DNA of 32,331 nucleotides from a virus, in UHGV virus genome UHGV-0737708; one strand, given 5' to 3'. Under the pieces are notes generated by a model, which ran no database searches, was not told the DNA's origin, and was given only the letters and a program-made list of their open reading frames with translations. Shown here one piece after another: positions 2,105 through 32,331 of this stretch. Each line of letters begins with the position of its first letter. Positions within the stretch are counted from its first letter, which is position 1. Position numbers and translations under genes: made by a program.

Positions 2105-2335
2105 TCAAAAACCTGTTGCTTCTACGATCTGACCATCACCGATCTGAACATAGAATTTAATGTCTAACTTCTTCATATTCTTATAGAATTGGGCGATTGA
2201 GATCCCATGTTCACTAAGAATCTGTTCTTTCGCTTCCTTACCACGATCCGCTGTATAGTAAGCGTAGGCAATATCAGCCATCTGTTCTTGAGTGAATCGT
2301 GCCGGACGACCGCGAGTAGCTTTAGTCATAGTCAT
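2105..2335 (-). CDS. Small putative DNA-binding protein (76 aa); basic N-terminus KATRGRPARF plus helix-turn-helix-like segment
   Basis: ATG preceded by AGGAGA; basic AT-hook-like N-terminus; terminator downstream on the same strand. Confidence 0.5.
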   Translation of the reverse strand: MTMTKATRGRPARFTQEQMADIAYAYYTADRGKEAKEQILSEHGISIAQFYKNMKKLDIKFYVQIGDGQIVEATGF

Positions 2336-3055: not shown

Positions 3056-4963
3056 ATGAAACTAATTTCTAATAAGGCCAAATTAAAAAAGATTCTCAAA
3101 AATGCAGCCAAATATATTACGCCACCGCCTAAACTACTTCCATCGGAATGGTGCGAAGCGAATATGGTGCTGGTAGATGGTCCTCAAGCTGGGGATAAAG
3201 TTAAATTGCTGTCATTCCAGAAAGGCATGATTGATGCTCCTTTCCTTGAGAATAAGAAAAAGTATGTTCTGATGACCAGTGCGCAGATCGGAAAGACTAC
3301 CATCCTGAACGGTATCCTGTTTAACCAGATGGCTAACGATCCATGCAATATGATTATCGGACAATCAACCGCTAAAGAAATGTCTCAATATCTCGCTGGT
3401 AAGATCCGACCGTCTATCGAAGCATGTGATGCATTAAAAGACGTGGTTACAGACAAGAATGATCGCAATTCTGTTAATAACAACAATCAGCTCCAGCTCA
3501 AATCAAACCACTTCCTTTATATGGTATCGCTTACTAGTCCATCAACCCTGCGCGGTAAGACTGCAAAGGTCGGACTACTAGACGAAATCGATGCTGCTAC
3601 AGCCTCAGAAGAAGGTGATCCGGTGGCACTGGCTGCTAACCGTTTAACTACCTTTGGTGATGAAGGCCGATTAGTCGTATCCAGCACCCCGACCAGTAAG
3701 CTCGGAAGCATTAACCAGCAATGGTTATCAAGCGATATGCGTATGTTTTTTGTTCCGTGTCCTCATTGCGGTAGACACCAGGTGATCGAGTGGGAAAACG
3801 TTCAATTTGAATGGCGTAACATCGATGGTAAGAACTTACCCGATCCTGATACCGCTCGTTATATTTGCCCCCACTGTAAGCAATCATGGACAGAAGGAGA
3901 GCGGATCAGGGCGGTAGCTGCTGGTGAATGGCGAGTAACGAGAGAAAGCGAGGTAGCAGGATTCTGGATCAGCCGTCTGTATTCACCTTTCAGCACGATC
4001 CGCGCTTGTGTGGTTGATTTTAGTCATGCGTGGCAATCCTTTGATTTACAATCATTTTATAACACAGTGTTAGGCAAGGTATACGACGATCAGGACACGG
4101 CAGTAGAAGCAAATGAACTGGAACAACTCAAAACAGATGTTTCTATCGAGAATATCCCTGATGACGTGATTTTCTTGTGCTCAGGAATTGACCAGCAATT
4201 GGACCGCGCAGAATCTACCATCTTAGGTGTAGCGAAAGATAAGGTTTACATTCTGGATCACCGCAGCTTTTACGATCATAACTGTGAACGATATGAATCA
4301 CCTGTATGGGATCGTCTGGTTAACTTCAAGAAAACCAAATTCTATAACGTTAATGGTGAACGTGTACCAATGCTCGCCAGCTTCCTTGATACATCGAACG
4401 GTCGATTCACTCAAGCCGGATACCGTATTTGCGGCAAGTGGAAGAACCTACACGCTATCAAAGGTAGTTCATCTGGTAATGCTCCAGTGATTCCGGTTAA
4501 ACCGACCCGCACAGGTGGTCATGAATTGCTTATGCTGGGTGTTAACGTTGGGAAATCCGCTGTTCGTGAAATGCTGGTTAGAAACCTGAAAGACAATCCT
4601 CACATCGGCTTAGAAATATCAGAAACCGTTCCTGATGATTATCTCGATCAGCTTTTGAGTGAATCCATCAAGCGTACTACTACTGGCGTGCGTTGGGTGA
4701 AAAATCCAGGTAGTACCCGAAACGAGGCTCTCGACTGTCTGGTTTATAGCTATGCTGCTTCTCGCTACGTTCTTTCAAAAATGTCATGGGATAAACTCAT
4801 TGCAATGAAAGACAGCTTAAACCGTGTTGTCGAAGAACCCGTAGAAGCTCCTAAATCGCAATCTGACGAGCAAATCGAAGAAACTAAGCCAATCACACGA
4901 CCGCAACGTAAAAACATCGCCAGACGCCCAAATAGAGGCCGTAGCTGGGTAACATCGTTCTAA
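3056..4963 (+). CDS. terL: Terminase large subunit, lambda GpA family (635 aa)
   Basis: Walker A-like SAQIGKT; paired zinc-ribbon cysteines CPHCGRH ... CPHCKQ; C-terminal [13 protein letters not shown] matching the lambda gpA nuclease region as recalled; followed by a portal gene. Confidence 0.88.
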
Positions 4964-26267: not shown

Positions 26268-27758
26268 TTATATAGCAATTGTTTTAGTTGCATAGCTGAA
26301 CTTGTCGGTCAAATAATAGCGGATTCTCTCAAGTGCATGTTTTACCGCATAATTTTTATGCTTGACTTTTCCGTTACGACCGAATATACACAGATGATCT
26401 ATAAGATCCCAGACCGTTGCAATATCCTTAGAACCATGTTTACGCAACGCACGACCGATACTCTGACGAACGATAGTTGATTCCTTCACTGGATGACCGA
26501 AAATAACATGATGCAAGTTCTTGATGGAAACACCAGTAGAGAACACACCATAAGACGCAACACAGATGAAGCCAGTGTCACCTTCCGCCATTTTCTTAAA
26601 TTCATCACGTTCTTCTGTCTTAACTCCACCATCAATATAATAAACCTTGTCGTGTACCTTCTGTAACGCATCATACATAAGTTTTCCGTGCTTAGTATTG
26701 CGGAACATCAGGAATACGTTTTCGCCCTTCTTAGCGAGTTTTAGCGCCAAATTGCAAGCAAACTTATTACGTCGTGGGTTAGATGTAATATACTTGATCT
26801 CTTCCGCATATTCTCTCCCCTTAACCGCGCTACATTCCTCATCGGTATAACGAAGGAAAAGACAGTTAATTTTCAGTTTCGTAACTTGACCTTCTTCCAT
26901 CAGGCGGTCAATACTCACGATCTTAGAAATATCACCGAAAAGCCCGACATACTGCATTAAATGGCACTTTGATTCTTTCGGGGAACCAGTCATACCAATT
27001 TTAAACTGGCAATGATTCATTCCGTTAATGATATTGGTAATATTTTTGGCACTAGCCTTATGTGATTCATCAACTATCAACATTCCATATTGTTTGAACC
27101 ATTCAGGAGGCATCTTGCAAGCTGATTGCCAGGTACTAACCGTGATTAACCTGTCTCCCGGATGTTTCCCGCTACCACTCATCATTGTATGAATTGCTTC
27201 ATAAGGGAATAGCCTATAATCGATGAAATCATCCCTCAGTTGAACCACTAGCGATGTAGTCGGAACAATGATTAGAACTTTTCCGGTGTAATGCTCTAAG
27301 TACCAACGAGACAGCATACAAGCAATCAATGACTTACCCGCACTGGTAGGAAGAACCAGCATTCTACGGCGATTATGGATACCCTGAAAGACTGCCTCCC
27401 TTTGATACCAATAAGGATTGATTTTATTGCTACCGGAATACACTTCTAAGGAATCAATCCATTCATTAATCGCGTCTTTGGTTACATCTTCCTTCTCAAG
27501 CAATCTGGGGTCAATCCAGACTGAATACCCCATATTTTTAACAAAGACACCCAACGTTTTTAATAGTCCAATTGGTAGGGTGTTTTCATGCGTAAACAGT
27601 CTTATTCGTCCATCCCAGCCAGAATACTTGTAACGGGGGCTAAACCTAGCCCCTTCAACCTCAAACGAGAAATAATCTCTTAATTCCATTCCGATAGAAG
27701 GAGAGCAATCAACCTTAACGAAACTGTAATCTTGAAAATGAATTTTAATATCTTGCAT
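26268..27758 (-). CDS. uvsW: SF2 DExH-box helicase resembling T4 UvsW (about 496 aa from ATG at 27758; the track start at 27767 is a GTG)
   Basis: Motif I LPTSAGKS, motif II DESH, C-terminal helicase motifs; N-terminal region resembles the UvsW DNA-binding domain as recalled; start ATG overlaps the upstream gene's stop. Confidence 0.78.
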   Translation of the reverse strand: MQDIKIHFQDYSFVKVDCSPSIGMELRDYFSFEVEGARFSPRYKYSGWDGRIRLFTHENTLPIGLLKTLGVFVKNMGYSVWIDPRLLEKEDVTKDAINEWIDSLEVYSGSNKINPYWYQREAVFQGIHNRRRMLVLPTSAGKSLIACMLSRWYLEHYTGKVLIIVPTTSLVVQLRDDFIDYRLFPYEAIHTMMSGSGKHPGDRLITVSTWQSACKMPPEWFKQYGMLIVDESHKASAKNITNIINGMNHCQFKIGMTGSPKESKCHLMQYVGLFGDISKIVSIDRLMEEGQVTKLKINCLFLRYTDEECSAVKGREYAEEIKYITSNPRRNKFACNLALKLAKKGENVFLMFRNTKHGKLMYDALQKVHDKVYYIDGGVKTEERDEFKKMAEGDTGFICVASYGVFSTGVSIKNLHHVIFGHPVKESTIVRQSIGRALRKHGSKDIATVWDLIDHLCIFGRNGKVKHKNYAVKHALERIRYYLTDKFSYATKTIAI

Positions 27759-28327
27759 TAGTTCCACTCCACACTTGCAATATTCTTTATATTGTTTAGT
27801 GATTTATTGCAGTAGTGGAATGTTTCAGTTTTGCCGTATTCAATCCCGCCTATACCCACATCCAGTAATCTCTTTATTGCTCTTTCAGTGGCTAAAGCAT
27901 GTTTCATTGATGGCATTTCACCAGCAAAGACAATATCAAAGTTATGACCGGGATTGCGTACACCCAGATTAATGCGTCGCTTGATGATTGACTTTGTTAC
28001 ACCAAATTTACCAATATCCCCTGATTTCATTACATAGAGATAAGGCACACCCGCTTTATATTGAAAGTAATCACTTTTGAGACATGCACAGCGTTTACCT
28101 TCATTAAGCAGGTTGGTAGCTGATTTGTCGGCTCTATTGCCGCATCGGGTACATGTAAGAGCAATTCTTGAATGAAGCCCTTTAAACTCACCCAGAAAGC
28201 CATGAAAGACTAACGGTAAGTCCTTCTCTTTGATGTGAGTCAGAATGCGTTGTTCTAATGCCGATGGAGTTACAGCACGGGAGGATTTAGGAGTAAAAAC
28301 AATATCTTTAGCCATCACTGGAATCAT
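27758..28327 (-). CDS. Zinc-ribbon plus GIY-YIG-like (T5orf172-type) domain protein (189 aa)
   Basis: CTRCGNR ... CAC cysteine cluster; YLYVMKSGDIGKFGVTK ... RR ... ATERAIKRLL resembles the T5orf172 / GIY-YIG-like pattern; GTGAGGT ribosome-binding site. Confidence 0.6.
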   Translation of the reverse strand: MIPVMAKDIVFTPKSSRAVTPSALEQRILTHIKEKDLPLVFHGFLGEFKGLHSRIALTCTRCGNRADKSATNLLNEGKRCACLKSDYFQYKAGVPYLYVMKSGDIGKFGVTKSIIKRRINLGVRNPGHNFDIVFAGEMPSMKHALATERAIKRLLDVGIGGIEYGKTETFHYCNKSLNNIKNIASVEWN

Positions 28328-28480
28328 ATAGACCTCACTTTTTAACTTATAGGCATAACCTCAATATGGTTGGTTTGGGATTTAGGGTCGCGTATTATAC
28401 ACATTCAGATAGAGAATGCAATAGTAAGACAATTTTCTCTAATAAATAGTAGTGAGCTTATTATTTTAGAGGAAACTACT

Positions 28481-29656
28481 ATGAAACTTGCTTACGCTGC
28501 CGAAATTCCTTTTGTTAAGAAAACTCGCGGTTTATCGCCGGAAGAGTACCAACAACGAATCATCGCTAAACTGGAACCTGCTTTCGTATTTGGTGGATTT
28601 ATCCTACCGTGGAAGGGTAATCACACTTACTTTCGAATCTACAATTTAGACACACAAGAATATAAGGACTACAAATTACGCAAACTGGAAGATACTAACG
28701 GGGGTGAGTTATTCCAGACTGAAAAGGCTGTATGGTTGAAAATGGAATCTCGTTGTAATGAGAAGGGAAAGAAATTCCTCGGATGGCAAGGAGAATGGAA
28801 AGGGCGAAATAGAACGAAAGCCCGTGTTTTGTGCCCTGAACACAATCAAATCATGACGCCATCTCTATTACATGCTCTCAAAGATGATTTCGATTTTGAT
28901 TGCAAAATCTGTATGGCTGAAAAATCCCAACGGGTAAGAAGTGGCAAGACTTTTGATGAAGTTATTAAGGACAAAGAGACAATCATCAATGCACGTTGCG
29001 AGAGTACGCCTTACACCTTCAAAGGATTCATCATAAACACCCCACACCTAAAGGATGTTAAATTTAAAACTCATTGCAAGACACATAACCACGAATGGGA
29101 ATCTCATTTAAGATGTGCTGATTCTTTCACTTGTCCGCTTTGCATTAAAGACCAACTGGTGCAACTGTCTAGCCGGACTTATCAGGGTAAGGCTAGTTTC
29201 TACATTCAATTATTAGATGACAAATTTATTAAATTTGGAATCACTACCCGGAAACCAGAAGAACGAATGAGAGAGCAAACCAGAAAGAGCAACTTCACTC
29301 ACCGCTTAATCTTTACTCATGAGTTTGAGGATGGTTGGAAAGCCGTTGATTTAGAGCATGAAGTAAAACAACGCTTCAAGACTCATGCAGCACCCTACAA
29401 AGATTTCAAGGATGGATGGTCGGAAACTCTGACTATTGATGAGTTGCCACACTTACAGCAACTGGTTTATGACTACCTAACCAATCAACCGGACGAGGCT
29501 AATATGTGGGTATCCCCGAAAGATGTATTTGATGACGATACATTCAAGCTACATACTCACTTCTACGGCATCAATAAACCGGAATTTTTCTGTATTGATG
29601 ACGACAGTCCTGATTTAATGGATGAATACTTTAATGCTCTCTTAGACGCTGCCTAA
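28481..29656 (+). CDS. Zinc-ribbon plus C-terminal GIY-YIG-like (T5orf172-type) domain protein (about 391 aa from ATG at 28481; the track start 28370 is not an ATG)
   Basis: AGAGGA ribosome-binding site before ATG 28481; Cys pairs CPEHN ... CKIC and CKTHNHEW ... CPLC; FYIQLLDDKFIKFGITTRKPEERMREQ ... LEHEVKQRF matches the same domain pattern as the 189-aa protein. Confidence 0.6.
   Translation: MKLAYAAEIPFVKKTRGLSPEEYQQRIIAKLEPAFVFGGFILPWKGNHTYFRIYNLDTQEYKDYKLRKLEDTNGGELFQTEKAVWLKMESRCNEKGKKFLGWQGEWKGRNRTKARVLCPEHNQIMTPSLLHALKDDFDFDCKICMAEKSQRVRSGKTFDEVIKDKETIINARCESTPYTFKGFIINTPHLKDVKFKTHCKTHNHEWESHLRCADSFTCPLCIKDQLVQLSSRTYQGKASFYIQLLDDKFIKFGITTRKPEERMREQTRKSNFTHRLIFTHEFEDGWKAVDLEHEVKQRFKTHAAPYKDFKDGWSETLTIDELPHLQQLVYDYLTNQPDEANMWVSPKDVFDDDTFKLHTHFYGINKPEFFCIDDDSPDLMDEYFNALLDAA
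28671..28724 (+). repeat. 54-nt segment inside the 28481..29656 gene, exactly repeated at 32278..32331
   Basis: Base-by-base comparison: ACAAATTACGCAAACTGGAAGATACTAACGGGGGTGAGTTATTCCAGACTGAAA at both places. Confidence 0.9.
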
Positions 29657-29684
29657 CGCAATTAAATTAAAAATGGGTACAGAT

Positions 29685-29700
29685 GTACCCCTTAAAGTGT
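29685..29700. terminator. Perfect palindrome GGGTACA-GA-TGTACCC between convergent genes
   Basis: 16-bp dyad read directly; A/T-rich on the minus-strand downstream side. Could alternatively be a recombinase site. Confidence 0.4.
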
Positions 29701-29729
29701 TTAGCTCGTTATACGTCGATTTAGGCCGC

Positions 29730-31409
29730 TTAAATTCCAAATTCCTGTAATGGACCTGGTATTTCTTCCACTGGTTTCCAGTTCTTATCTGTCAGCATGT
29801 CTAAACATGGATGCAGAACAAGCCCGTTGCTCTCCAGAATCTGCCTATCATTGATAGTCTTCAAATCGACAAATATTTGTCCTTTCCTCGTTCCTCTTGA
29901 ATTTTCTATTACAACTCTCTGGGTCTTTCCATCGATGTATTCCAGTACAAACAAGTTTTTGTTTCTGTCAATCCTGCTACACCCGATCCGCTTTAGAGCT
30001 TGCTTAATCTTAAACCGGACCTTTAGTCGTTCCTCGTTGTAAACATCTTCTAAATCAAATTCTGCGAGCTTCTCCCAGCCTTGAGAGTCAACAGAATACA
30101 TTTCCTCTTCTGCCATCTTGATCTGATTGTAGAGTGTTTCACGCTCGCTATTGAGGGTAGTAATCTGATCGGCTAGCTCCTTCGTTGCTCCTGTCATAGC
30201 AGAAAGGGCAATCAGGTTATCAATCTTGCGTGATATTTCATCAACCTGTACTTTCAACGCCGGAACCGGATTAGCCTTGTCCTCAGCAATCCAGATTTTA
30301 TCAGCCAGCAATTGCAATACAGCTTTCTCTAATTGATCACCTCGAAAACTCCAGTTTGGATGCTCGCAATCAAGTCTACGTGAACGGGTCGCATCACATG
30401 TATAACGATACTGGTCAGAACGTTTGTTCGTTCCCTTCACTTTAACCATAGCGCAACCGCAATGATCACATTTCAATAGGCCAATACCACTAAGCAGGGG
30501 GATCGGTTTAACTTCTTCCTTGTCTCCAAAGTTCCATGCTCTAGCACCAATATTTTTCTTAAGGTGATAGAACGTAGGGTCATCAATAACACGAGGGTAA
30601 TAATCCTTTAACTCATAGTTAACGCCATCTACAGAGACCTCCTTGATACCAATCAAAGCGCGGGTATGAAACAACCTTTCAACCATTGCCCGTGACCATT
30701 TTGAATGCTTCTTGTTGCTAACCGCTGGTGGCGGTGTATAAGTCTCGTTAAGGTGATCCAGTATTTCGGCGGTTGAACGTCCATTCTTCCGTAATTCCAC
30801 AATCTCCTGAACAACAGGGAAGTACACCGGATGAGGCAGCACATAACCGGAAGTGGTATCCGTCCACCACATATTCTTTCCAACTTCCTCGATTGCCACT
30901 GCCGGATTCTGGGGATTTTCTTGATGGGCTTTAATCTTAATCAGTGCGCTTGAGTTAGTACGATTGCGCTTAGTCTGGCTTTCCTCATTACCACGGATGA
31001 ATAAAAGGATGGAGAACATCAGGTCCATCGGATTAGCGGTAACAGTATCCAGCGAGTAGATCTTGTTATCCATGCCAGTAACAATGGTTATTCCCCTACG
31101 GATGATTGAAAGGAATAACTCCTGCGCACTGACAATATCGGCACGGGATAAACGGTCCAAGTTTTCGATGAATAGCCAGCTACCAACAGGAACGGATCTA
31201 CCTATTGCATCAAGGAAACGAGATAGCGCCCCTGTTTTGGAGTTAGCACCTTTAAACGCAGATACACCCAGATCCTGATAATCATTTACCAGTTCTAAGT
31301 CATACTTTGCCGCAATCTCTCTCGCCATCCTGATTTGTCGTTCATAACTCGAACCATCACTCTGACGCATAGACGAGAAGCGAATATACGAATACAGTTT
31401 AGTTTTCAT
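29730..31409 (-). CDS. Large serine recombinase (about 559 aa from ATG at 31409; the track start 31424 is a TTG)
   Basis: N-terminal resolvase-type catalytic domain (YSYIRFSSMRQSDGSSYERQ with the R-x-S nucleophile context, ENLDRLSR); central recombinase domain; Cys cluster CDHCGC ... C ... C; C-terminal coiled coil. Confidence 0.8.
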   Translation of the reverse strand: MKTKLYSYIRFSSMRQSDGSSYERQIRMAREIAAKYDLELVNDYQDLGVSAFKGANSKTGALSRFLDAIGRSVPVGSWLFIENLDRLSRADIVSAQELFLSIIRRGITIVTGMDNKIYSLDTVTANPMDLMFSILLFIRGNEESQTKRNRTNSSALIKIKAHQENPQNPAVAIEEVGKNMWWTDTTSGYVLPHPVYFPVVQEIVELRKNGRSTAEILDHLNETYTPPPAVSNKKHSKWSRAMVERLFHTRALIGIKEVSVDGVNYELKDYYPRVIDDPTFYHLKKNIGARAWNFGDKEEVKPIPLLSGIGLLKCDHCGCAMVKVKGTNKRSDQYRYTCDATRSRRLDCEHPNWSFRGDQLEKAVLQLLADKIWIAEDKANPVPALKVQVDEISRKIDNLIALSAMTGATKELADQITTLNSERETLYNQIKMAEEEMYSVDSQGWEKLAEFDLEDVYNEERLKVRFKIKQALKRIGCSRIDRNKNLFVLEYIDGKTQRVVIENSRGTRKGQIFVDLKTINDRQILESNGLVLHPCLDMLTDKNWKPVEEIPGPLQEFGI

Positions 31410-31430
31410 ACCATTTCCAAACAAAAACGC

Positions 31431-31460
31431 CCCTACCGCGTATTATAACGATAGGGGCAT
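31431..31460 (-). terminator. Hairpin terminator after the leftward gene ending at 31475; its loop contains TATAAT
   Basis: Minus strand: GCCCCTA ... TAGGGGC stem followed by GTTTTTGTTT; the loop TATAAT could serve as a -10 for the recombinase gene. Confidence 0.45.
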
Positions 31461-31474
31461 TGGTTAGTAAGTCA

Positions 31475-31720
31475 TTAATATTTCTTTCCAGTTAGTTTTG
31501 CATCACGTTTATTAATATCCTCGATATGACTCCATACACACGCAGTAATAAAGTCGTCATCGTCACCAACTCCGGCAACCTGTGCTAATTCAGTACACAG
31601 TTGATTTAAAGAAGGTGCAACGGCAGCACGCTTGACACTATCACCCTGTACATATTGTTCGGCATTTGCAGCACCAACCAAACCCAGAGCAAGAACGATA
31701 CCAGCGATAATCTTTTTCAT
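31475..31720 (-). CDS. Small secreted protein with cleavable signal peptide (81 aa; predicted cleavage after ANA)
   Basis: MKKIIAGIVLALGLVGAANA-EQ signal peptide; AGAGGA ribosome-binding site. Confidence 0.5.
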   Translation of the reverse strand: MKKIIAGIVLALGLVGAANAEQYVQGDSVKRAAVAPSLNQLCTELAQVAGVGDDDDFITACVWSHIEDINKRDAKLTGKKY

Positions 31721-31749
31721 AATAGAATCCTCTTTGTTATTTGAATTAA

Positions 31750-32091
31750 TTAGTCTTTGAAGTCGATGGTCACGTTACCTTTAAGGGCAAGTTCCATTAA
31801 ACAACTGCGCTCATCCTTCATGCTCTTACACAATTTCATCCCGTAAACAACGAGATTATCTTTCTCTTTCCAATATTTTTGTTTATCTGCATAAACCTCG
31901 CTATATTCACTGTCTTTGAGTGAGAGAGCATTTTCTAACTGGCTAATCTCCTGATTCAGATCCTTAATCTCGGCCTTATTTGACCGGATAGTCTCTTGAT
32001 GTTGAGTATCGGAATAGTCATACCCACAAACAAATCCACCGATGCCACCAACACACACAGAAACAATAATTGCGTAGATAGTCTTTTTCAT
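31750..32091 (-). CDS. Small membrane-anchored protein with periplasmic coiled coil (113 aa)
   Basis: MKKTIYAIIVSVCVGGIGGFVCG hydrophobic N-terminus; AGAGGA ribosome-binding site nearly identical to that of the downstream gene. Confidence 0.5.
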   Translation of the reverse strand: MKKTIYAIIVSVCVGGIGGFVCGYDYSDTQHQETIRSNKAEIKDLNQEISQLENALSLKDSEYSEVYADKQKYWKEKDNLVVYGMKLCKSMKDERSCLMELALKGNVTIDFKD

Positions 32092-32132
32092 AATTGAATC
32101 CTCTTTGAATGAATTACGATATATTTATATCG

Positions 32133-32277: not shown

Positions 32278-32331
32278 ACAAATTACGCAAACTGGAAGAT
32301 ACTAACGGGGGTGAGTTATTCCAGACTGAAA
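32278..32331 (+). repeat. Window-terminal 54-nt exact copy of 28671..28724
   Basis: Exact identity read directly; sequence upstream of 32278 is unrelated to that upstream of 28671. Confidence 0.9.

Follow-up and report, generated by a model that had tools for sequence, protein, structure and literature searches.

A large serine recombinase gene at the right end of an Escherichia coli prophage and its proposed attachment sites

Near its right end, the virus genome UHGV-0737708 carries a gene for a large serine recombinase that is bracketed by two hairpins. What this enzyme does for the virus is the question raised by the locus. A preliminary description, made from the window alone (the whole stretch of 32,331 nucleotides analysed here), had proposed integration or another site-specific rearrangement, in an otherwise lytic-looking gene set. 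The best explanation of the evidence as a whole is that the gene product is the integrase of a temperate siphovirus of the lambda-terminase type with a prophage of about 37 kb, a reading to which we assign a probability of roughly 0.88. The phage lineage has been little studied and is without a cultured relative, the closest terminase being 43% identical.

The recombinase gene and its product

The open reading frame lies on the minus strand and extends at most over positions 29730-31424, which corresponds to 564 aa if translation starts at a TTG codon. Translation likely begins with the ATG at 31409, as in all public gene calls, giving a gene at 29730-31409 (minus strand) and a protein of 559 aa. 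The product is a genuine large serine recombinase (LSR), in agreement with the serine recombinase of about 560 aa described from the window, and the catalytic, recombinase, Cys4 zinc-ribbon and (predicted) coiled-coil parts are all present. Its layout comprises a catalytic domain (residues 1-125), the aE helix (127-164), a recombinase domain (about 196-292), a Cys4 zinc ribbon (about 312-371), a coiled coil (382-438) and a beta-rich domain (472-533).

Pfam searches placed Recombinase (PF07508) at residues 198-287 (E 1e-8) and Zn_ribbon_recom (PF13408) at residues 310-368 (E 1e-10). Resolvase (PF00239) was absent from the list of the full-length scan and was recovered with an E value of 3e-15 when residues 1-153 were scanned separately; it is also recorded publicly for an identical protein. 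The gene product further matched PHROG 95, "integrase", with an E value of 6e-63. The catalytic region reads YIRFSSMRQ...ENLDRLSR and was aligned to the RVST motif of 3GUV. Among 31 homologues, R10, Q16, D85, R86 and R89 were invariant, as were the zinc-ribbon residues C314, C317, C338 and C348, while S12 was conserved in at least 90%. The catalytic Ser-Arg context (Arg10/Ser12/Asp85-Arg86/Arg89), the loss of which had been named beforehand as an observation that would speak against the assignment, is thus intact, and by analogy with other LSRs we infer that catalysis proceeds through Ser12.

A search of PDB sequences with the integrase yielded a weak N-terminal match only, and a fold search was therefore performed on the predicted structure. 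The AlphaFold (AF2) model (pLDDT 81.6) contains the long aE helix at 127-164, and antiparallel helices predicted at residues 382-406 and 410-438 form a two-helix coiled coil. The top Foldseek matches in the PDB were 9dxd, 9dxf, 9rah (PhiC31), 9iu2 (Bxb1) and 4kis (LI), with E values from 3e-17 to 5e-9 and alignments spanning 550-650 columns; the TM scores were low (0.2-0.35), which is expected of a flexible multidomain protein.

Integrases of the PhiC31, Bxb1 and LI type are thus the best full-length structural matches, at 13-17% identity in the structural alignments. Together with TP901-1, PhiC31, Bxb1 and A118/LI have the same domain order (catalytic, aE, recombinase, Cys4 zinc ribbon with a coiled-coil insert) and the same set of catalytic Arg/Ser/Asp-Arg/Arg residues. 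These known integrases belong to phages of Actinobacteria and Firmicutes, whereas the present host is a member of the Enterobacteriaceae; the targets (ycdX and hicB, see below), the AA core and the extra C-terminal beta-rich domain (472-533) also set the present integrase apart from the PhiC31/Bxb1 type. Among sequenced phages, a megablast search with the region gave no match, and tblastn with the integrase recovered relatives of at most 34% identity. The nearest full-length relatives from isolates include proteins of the Burkholderia phages JC1, Bcep22 and Bcep176 (28-30% identity over 85-94% of the integrase), which are annotated as serine recombinase or integrase and likewise located at the genome end, but these phages differ from the present one in type and host and the identity is low.

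Prophage junctions and attachment sites

Near-identical copies of the integrase were found in 57 of 5,426 complete E. coli genomes (about 1%), at 59 places, all of them chromosomal and each at a prophage's right end. The same integrase, or one that is 87-99% identical, is carried on many chromosomes of E. coli and Shigella, and more distant ones were found in Salmonella and E. fergusonii (70-77% identical) and in Edwardsiella (60%). The impression of a lytic-looking gene set was thus misleading, since the element is found as a prophage in the chromosomes of E. coli, Shigella, Salmonella and Edwardsiella.

The prophage splits ycdX in strain PSJ-22 and hicB in OkiPb01713, and both sites are present in empty form in K-12. 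A search of bacterial genomes for prophage junctions, which the preliminary description had suggested as a check, identified attR junctions at ycdX in 25 E. coli genomes and at hicB in 35, which together explain essentially all of the 59 integrase places; two double lysogens, BS74R-D and UTME-9, carry both. Junctions of the same kind were observed in the ycdX homologues of Salmonella, Edwardsiella and one further relative. With precisely joined integrated copies so abundant in E. coli genomes, integration is supported as the function, and with junctions abundant and the catalytic context intact, neither of the two observations that had been named as counting against the proposal was made. The copy in the window itself probably targets ycdX, since its closest relatives (97-98.5% nucleotide identity) use ycdX.

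By comparing attL, attR and empty sites, we reconstructed attP as an imperfect dyad of 54 bp (26 + AA + 26) with 16 of 26 positions symmetric and the arms GTTATTGTGGGTACATGATATTAGGC-AA-CCCGAACGTAGTCAACCCCCAATAAC. All that is common to attB, attL and attR at both ycdX and hicB is a 2-bp AA, located exactly in the middle of the dyad (partly counted by hand). The junction sequences place the crossover at this AA dinucleotide, within sites that are imperfect dyads without a long common core. The ycdX attB, the main one, lies within the codons of the conserved HPGNPKY motif and reads CCGGA-AA-TCCCAAATATG. The hicB attB, TTGGC-AA-ACCTAAACAGG, is a look-alike of the ycdX site and is used as often, and one P arm was seen joined to ycdX in one lineage (L012) and to hicB in another (L042). 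Alignment to relatives puts attP about 375 nt past the right end of the window, and it is for this reason missing from it. The site adjoins the last gene of the phage and is separated from the integrase start by about 1.3 kb on the upstream side; the distance from the integrase gene to attR is about 1.3 kb in E. coli and about 0.2 kb in Edwardsiella.

If the enzyme works like the serine integrases that have been characterised, its dimers would bind the 54-bp attP together with an attB located in a host gene, cleave the two sites at the AA in their centre via Ser12 and exchange strands by subunit rotation. After integration, the integrase gene would lie at the prophage's right end. For excision, a recombination directionality factor is expected to be required; family searches identified none among the phage genes. 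An attP of about 50 bp with imperfect dyad symmetry, a short intragenic attB and a non-palindromic central dinucleotide are features shared with the PhiC31 and Bxb1 systems. The derivation of attP and attB from attL and attR at prophage boundaries follows the same logic as the computational LSR catalogue of Durrant et al. 2022 (PMC10083194), in whose scheme the present family would rank as "relatively site-specific" (1-3 target gene clusters). The att sequences and the integrase N-terminus were not found in the searched supplementary files of that catalogue, and a literature search for serine-integrase prophages in ycdX or hicB retrieved nothing relevant.

If the recombinase were an accessory enzyme, be it a resolvase, an invertase or a passenger like YbcK of lambdoid phages, integration would have to rely on another system. 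The closest proteins in E. coli phages are indeed of the YbcK type ("recombinase family protein" of the lambdoid phages 4A7, D2, Perceval and others; 31% identity over 80%, same host species), and a PHROG "DNA invertase" family gave a weak match (E 2e-11). Lambdoid phages integrate with a tyrosine integrase, and their YbcK-type genes lie inside the phage genome, whereas the present gene is always at the attR end of the prophage and, in Edwardsiella, directly beside the junction. No tyrosine integrase or other integrase-family gene was seen in any gene list of the prophage, and the 2-bp core with dyad arms is typical of serine integrases and not of tyrosine integrases, which have a longer identical core. 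The full LSR architecture of 559 aa with recombinase and zinc-ribbon domains also contrasts with Hin/Gin/Pin-type DNA invertases, which measure about 190 aa, have a C-terminal HTH and act on inverted sites of about 26 bp. An accessory role is accordingly very improbable. It is unlikely, too, that the element is a defective, domesticated prophage with an integrase that is a relic and no longer moves it. Such a relic would fit with the lack of circular or otherwise excised attP-containing forms, or virion forms, in IMG/VR and the JGI metagenomes, with cultured phages being no closer than 43% (TerL) or 31% (integrase), and with the lack of recognisable repressor or replication genes in the prophage. 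Against it, the structural, lysis and packaging modules are complete with intact reading frames, and the integrase reading frame is intact in hundreds of cluster members. Moreover, recent mobility is suggested by the patchy distribution (1% of genomes), the two attB sites, the double lysogens and an attB common to three genera.

The preferred reading settles the identity of the gene and supplies the att sites that are missing from the window. Native E. coli serine integrases for which attP and attB have been defined are useful tools, and the present family provides two natural targets (ycdX and hicB) with an AA core. About 1% of complete E. coli genomes have ycdX inactivated or the hicB antitoxin gene shortened by this prophage, with possible effects on the host. 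The biology is otherwise ordinary and leaves the understanding of serine integrases unchanged.

Hairpins on both sides of the gene

Downstream of the integrase gene, the perfect 7+2+7 palindrome GGGTACAGATGTACCC (equal to GGGTACAnnnnTGTACCC) is located at 29675-29690, 10 nt further left than the 29685-29700 given previously. It is followed on the minus strand by the tract AUUUUUAAUUU (29660-29674), and a terminator scan and an RNA fold (-10.3 kcal/mol, z -2.1) both indicate an intrinsic terminator at 29660-29690 (minus strand), between the convergent GIY-YIG and integrase genes. The scan called both hairpins on the minus strand, with 5 terminator-like sites in the region versus 2.2 +/- 1.4 in shuffled sequences. 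A 9-bp stem with a U-tract is also present here in the E. coli and Salmonella relatives, while in Edwardsiella an unrelated GC hairpin with a U-tract takes its place. Judging from these sequence features, the palindrome is best read as an intrinsic terminator that serves the integrase gene.

The preliminary description had offered two views of this palindrome, a crossover core or just a terminator, and only the latter has held. That the palindrome, or the upstream hairpin, could be the site of the recombinase, with a 2-bp centre as crossover core and a cassette that is locally inverted or excised, is barely credible. The perfect palindrome does adjoin the integrase gene, its 7-mer GGGTACA recurs in the attP P arm of some lineages, and the hairpin loop is flipped (ATCT versus AGAT) between close relatives. 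However, the attP reconstructed from attL and attR lies elsewhere, with an AA core and no extended similarity to the palindrome, which rules out the palindrome as an att site. GGGTACA is not kept in the P arms, being replaced by GGGGGCA in the hicB type and by GGGTGTA in Salmonella, and GGGTACA/TGTACCC occurs 7 times in the window. Two substitutions, or template switching inside the palindrome, can account for the loop flip, and both the U-tract that follows in the integrase sense and its counterpart behind the unrelated Edwardsiella hairpin argue for termination. Local rearrangement with inverted flanking segments, also raised earlier, did not materialise: the gene order around the palindrome is collinear in all copies inspected, and no segment near the integrase gene is bounded by long inverted repeats, so that an invertible segment is ruled out.

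The second hairpin, directly upstream of the integrase start, has the stem GCCCCUAUCG/CGGUAGGGGC and a U-tract at 31420-31428. It had been correctly recognised as a minus-strand terminator, with coordinates (31431-31460) that need correction to 31429-31458. The fold is more stable on the minus strand (-23.7 kcal/mol, z -3.4) than on the plus strand (-14.9 kcal/mol), and the lineages of E. coli, Salmonella and Edwardsiella keep the position, while 3 stem pairs have changed in a compensatory way. The scan, the fold and this comparison of lineages point to an intrinsic terminator for the 81-aa gene that precedes it.

The loop of this hairpin contains TATAAT (31442-31447, minus strand), a candidate -10 element for an integrase promoter. 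A promoter embedded in the terminator loop is plausible because TATAAT is invariant across five lineages in which the stems and flanks differ. To this extent the coupled terminator-promoter suggested earlier stands as a hypothesis; on the other side, the -35 element at 17-bp spacing is poor (TTACTA, matching at 3/6 positions in the window and 3-4/6 across lineages, read by hand), and a consensus promoter scan called none at this hairpin. A transcript initiated from TATAAT would have its first nucleotides in the 3' arm of the hairpin, leaving it unable to form the terminator.

The integrase gene may thus be a transcriptionally insulated unit between two terminators. The strong upstream terminator would block transcripts from the small variable genes beside attP, the gene itself would probably be transcribed from a weak promoter with its -10 TATAAT in the terminator loop, and the palindrome would end the integrase transcript. 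That a promoter within a shielding terminator, shared by E. coli, Salmonella and Edwardsiella, goes together with a single attP type that naturally uses the unrelated ycdX and hicB is a tentative proposition, which we regard as possible but on balance doubtful. If true, the hairpin would be a compact insulator-promoter, at which upstream transcripts stop and from which transcripts begun inside escape, and the integrase would be a native dual-site E. coli enzyme with a ready-defined 54-bp attP and attB sites.

Neighbouring genes and the end of the window

Between the integrase gene and attP, the window contains two small genes on the minus strand. The 81-aa protein encoded at 31475-31720 has an N-terminal sequence resembling a signal peptide (MKKIIAGIVLALGLVGAANA) and no family match in Pfam, PHROG and further family searches; its gene is variable, being present or absent among relatives. 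The 113-aa protein encoded at 31750-32091 has an N-terminal hydrophobic segment, a coiled coil and a weak Rz-like spanin match (PHROG, E 0.002). Its gene is missing from several close relatives and has been deleted between 63-nt direct repeats in three lineages (L031, L035 and L045).

On the other side, a gene for a CapR-domain/GIY-YIG (T5orf172, MUG113) endonuclease (28481-29656, plus strand; Pfam; PHROG 681, E 2e-43) is convergent with the integrase gene and occupies a variable cargo slot, which is filled by different genes in FXCREC043 and by Kiwa KwaA/KwaB in L030. The Rha-like regulator noted in the preliminary description is real, an anti-repressor-like gene at 1061-1891; beyond it, searches of the left arm and small reading frames with Pfam, PHROGs, NCBIfam and PADLOC gave nothing convincing for repressor or replication genes. 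An Rfam search of the gene-free 1.3 kb was likewise without a match. The phage layout is unusual in that the small terminase gene adjoins attP, an iteron-like repeat array is present and repressor and replication genes are not recognisable.

The last 54 nt of the window (32278-32331, plus strand) repeat 28671-28724, a segment of the CapR/GIY-YIG gene, without a mismatch (direct repeat D4); their junction with the true sequence reads ...ACTAACGACAA|ATTACGC. At this point the sister contig NODE_11 and every E. coli copy have a different continuation (...GACAATATAAGAAAG...), and the junction is absent from IMG/VR and the JGI metagenomes. These 54 nt are probably an assembly artefact and not the right end of the phage. 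Over the 12.5 kb of the right-hand part that was compared, NODE_11 (ENA ERZ1024471) and the window differ at 2 bases, in addition to the end.

A serine integrase in a siphovirus-type phage

The window is the genome of a siphovirus-type phage, with genes for a large terminase of the lambda GpA type and a portal of the lambda type, a protease-capsid fusion, a tail tube, a tape measure, a tip resembling gpJ and a fibre resembling T4 gp37/gp38, as well as an M15 endolysin, a UvsW-like helicase and a Rha/anti-repressor-like regulator. Megablast against sequenced phage isolates gave no match; the closest large terminase was 43% identical and the best integrase match in such isolates at most 34% identical. 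Many E. coli and Shigella chromosomes carry integrases 87-99% identical to that of the window; more distant ones occur in Salmonella and E. fergusonii (70-77%) and one in Edwardsiella (60%). Of the 5,426 complete E. coli genomes searched, 57 contained the integrase region, at 59 places that were all chromosomal. The sister contig NODE_11 of ENA ERZ1024471 (36,108 bp) aligned with 0 mismatches over 11.9 kb on the left and 2 mismatches over 12.5 kb on the right. Gene calls checked with Pfam, PHROGs, NCBIfam and PADLOC identified no repressor or directionality factor, and no gene list of the prophage contained a tyrosine integrase.

One long open reading frame in 29657-31474 lies on the minus strand and spans 29730-31424 from a TTG start or 29730-31409 from the ATG at 31409, the latter giving the 559-aa product found in all public gene calls. 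Pfam placed Recombinase at residues 198-287 and Zn_ribbon_recom at 310-368 of the full-length protein. Resolvase was unlisted in that scan, which could wrongly have implied a missing catalytic domain; it was recovered when residues 1-153 were scanned alone (E = 3e-15), and a public record of this exact protein lists it too. Across 31 aligned homologues with identities down to 28%, R10, Q16, D85, R86, R89, C314, C317, C338 and C348 were invariant and S12 was conserved in at least 90%, and the motif YIRFSSMRQ...ENLDRLSR has the Arg/Ser and Asp-Arg/Arg catalytic context of resolvases. The AlphaFold2 model (mean pLDDT 81.6) consists of a catalytic domain (residues 1-125), a long aE helix (127-164), the recombinase domain followed by the zinc ribbon, a coiled coil of two long antiparallel helices (382-438) and a beta-rich C-terminal domain (472-533). 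Its top matches among solved structures were full-length serine integrases (E = 3e-17 to 5e-9), including the integrase-RDF complexes 9dxd/9dxf, PhiC31 (9rah), Bxb1 (9iu2) and LI (4kis). The domains, coiled coil and catalytic context named in the preliminary description were thus all recovered, and by every criterion that could be tested the protein is a large serine recombinase (serine integrase).

Characterised serine integrases are nevertheless distant, with 13-17% identity in structural alignments. Among the nearest relatives in phage isolates are the recombinases of Burkholderia JC1/Bcep22/Bcep176 (28-30%) and, in lambdoid phages of E. coli, YbcK-like proteins (31%), whose genes are interior to those phage genomes.

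Attachment sites in ycdX and hicB

In the E. coli lysogen PSJ-22, ycdX is split by a prophage of about 36.8 kb, and we derived the attachment sites by comparing its junctions with the intact ycdX of K-12. The host site attB reads CATCCCGGA-AA-TCCCAAATATG, the left junction attL CATCCCGGA-AA-CCCGAACGTAGTCAACCCCCAATAAC and the right junction attR GTTATTGTGGGTACATGATATTAGGC-AA-TCCCAAATATG, from which attP is reconstructed as GTTATTGTGGGTACATGATATTAGGC-AA-CCCGAACGTAGTCAACCCCCAATAAC. The AA dinucleotide is the sole crossover that fits attB, attL and attR together, and lies at the exact centre of two 26-nt arms that form an imperfect inverted repeat (16 of 26 positions symmetric by hand count), with outer blocks GTTATTGnGGG and CCCnCAATAAC. 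The same kind of prophage splits hicB in OkiPb01713 at TTGGC-AA-ACCTAAACAGG, a site similar to both attP and the ycdX attB near the core (GGn-AA-nCCnAAA).

The preliminary description had proposed a search of bacterial genomes for prophage junctions, and integrated copies were found when short junction queries were run against complete E. coli genomes. Junctions of the attR type were present at ycdX in 25 genomes and at hicB in 35, with both in BS74R-D and UTME-9, and explain essentially all 59 integrase places; the remaining genomes matched the host half only and hence carry empty sites. An identical P arm of attP is joined to ycdX in one relative (L012) and to hicB in an IMG/VR locus (L042). 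The ycdX homologue is also the target in Salmonella (L019-L021, L029), in L030 and in Edwardsiella (L022), the insertion falling in the codons of a conserved HPGNPKY motif with GG(C/G)-AA at the junction. Two further targets were a glycosyltransferase gene, entered at its 3' end (L006), and a gene resembling cytosine permeases (L028). In each of these insertions the integrase is the last gene before attR or nearly so, 1.3 kb from the junction in E. coli and roughly 0.2 kb from it in Edwardsiella. These comparisons are strong evidence that the protein serves as the integrase and acts in the manner of serine integrases. Neither IMG/VR nor the JGI metagenomes contained the excised attP form.

By alignment with PSJ-22, the attachment site lies outside the window, about 375 nt beyond its right end. 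Since the copies nearest in nucleotide sequence (97-98.5%) are located in ycdX, this gene is the likely target of the window's copy as well; the examined copies at 95% and 91% are in hicB.

A literature search retrieved no paper on a serine-integrase prophage at ycdX or hicB, and the sites were absent from the searched supplementary files of the large serine-recombinase catalogue of Durrant et al., under whose scheme (PMC10083194) the family would rank as "relatively site-specific". The nature of the integrase is unsurprising; the usefulness lies in the sites now defined.

At hicB, integration cuts about 39 codons from the end of the antitoxin gene and leaves hicA intact (junctions in the relatives' loci L017 3260-3568 and L016 4541-4660). 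If the C-terminal part lost in this way carries the DNA-binding domain of HicB, toxin-antitoxin control could change in the 35 hicB lysogens.

Hairpins flanking the integrase gene

Both hairpins previously reported to bracket the gene are real, although the downstream palindrome GGGTACAGATGTACCC lies at 29675-29690 rather than at 29685-29700. It had been read as either a crossover core with a 2-bp centre or just a terminator. The motif GGGTACA does occur in some P arms, without being conserved there, and it or its complement occurs 7 times in the window; a role as the core is contradicted by the location of attP elsewhere, with its AA core. In the integrase sense the palindrome is followed by AUUUUUAAUUU, and a scan called it a minus-strand terminator. 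E. coli and Salmonella relatives have a 9-bp stem (AGGGGUAC-loop-GUACCCCU) and a U-tract, of which the window's stem is a slightly eroded version (6-7 bp, -10.3 kcal/mol, z = -2.1), and Edwardsiella has an unrelated GC hairpin with a U-tract at the same position. The U-tract, the scan call and the retention of the position with an unrelated hairpin identify the palindrome, at the level of sequence, as the integrase terminator, common also to the convergent GIY-YIG gene. Its 4-nt loop (29681-29684) reads ATCT or the reverse complement AGAT between identical stems in the window and L012, L013, L016 and L028, which looks like a loop flip as from template switching in palindromes.

The upstream hairpin (31429-31458) had been suggested to couple a terminator to a promoter, and the terminator half of this proposal holds. 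It was called in the integrase sense and folds at -23.7 kcal/mol (z = -3.4), compared with -14.9 on the other strand, a difference due to G-U pairs; by these predictions it is a strong terminator ending the transcript of an 81-aa gene. The stem differs in each of five lineages (GCCCCUAUCG, two variants in Salmonella, ACCCUCG and GCCCUGC), with compensatory changes at 3 base pairs, yet TATAAT is retained in every loop and precedes a U-tract, a Shine-Dalgarno sequence and the ATG. Against a promoter, the -35 element at 17-bp spacing is poor (TTnnnn, 3-4 of 6 positions) and the consensus promoter scan made no call at the hairpin. A transcript starting 6-8 nt past the TATAAT would begin in the 3' arm and so be unable to form the terminator, and the integrase would be shielded from upstream transcription yet weakly expressed. 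We consider such a loop-embedded promoter behind a shielding terminator a candidate with slightly less than even odds.

The window end and neighbouring genes

The last 54 nt of the window (32278-32331) exactly repeat 28671-28724 inside the CapR/GIY-YIG gene, and are joined at ...ACTAACGACAA|ATTACGC with a 4-nt microhomology (ACAA). A real 3.6-kb duplication or a circle is a possible source of such a repeat. Past the join, NODE_11 and every E. coli copy read on differently, and 54 nt is the k-mer overlap expected of a k=55 assembly, so that the end is likely a chimeric graph join rather than genuine phage sequence. NODE_11 has Illumina adapter sequence at both ends (L001 1-48, L027 1-49); it begins 24 nt into the small terminase gene and ends at the equivalent of about 32318, with about 750 nt around attP missing. 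Broken contig ends with untrimmed adapter could account for this, or it may hint at defined DNA ends.

The small terminase gene (L027 35-580, outside the window; PHROG 57, E = 6e-15) comes first at the left end of the prophage, about 365 nt from the attL core, and about 6.2 kb of regulatory-looking genes separate it from the large terminase gene (3056-4963). Its position near attL suggests that cos probably adjoins attP, in which case the virion and prophage maps would be nearly collinear. Outside the window, about 570-750 nt to the left of its position 1 (L027 2990-3175), at least 8 direct copies of TTTTGCCCCTGAAA are spaced by 21-29 nt in a gene-free 1.3-kb stretch between divergent genes, for which Rfam gave no match. 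The array resembles a set of iterons, operators or terminase-binding sites, and the same motif makes up the terminator after the Rha gene (1898-1908).

Apart from a 76-aa protein (2105-2335, minus strand) and a 59-aa protein (L027 2305-2484, minus strand), nothing in the phage is repressor-like. By eye the two are paralogue-like, with the common pattern ...RFT.E....A..Y.......L.E.GI....F.K..K..DIK, and each of their genes has a larger unannotated neighbour on its own strand (200 and 314 aa, respectively); they are possible regulators.

The slot between endolysin and integrase (26268-29656; L013 4608-6024; L030 5858-7500) holds variable cargo: a UvsW-like helicase and two CapR-domain proteins, of which one carries a fused GIY-YIG nuclease, in the window, different genes in FXCREC043, a UvsY-like gene in Salmonella relatives and the Kiwa defence genes KwaA/KwaB in one relative. 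Upstream of the integrase, two small genes have a common 63-nt start region (31674-31736 and 32045-32107, 75% identical) with the identical end ...CATAAT(A/T)GAATCCTCTTTG. Several close relatives precisely lack the 113-aa gene, as though recombination between the 63-nt repeats had removed or added it.
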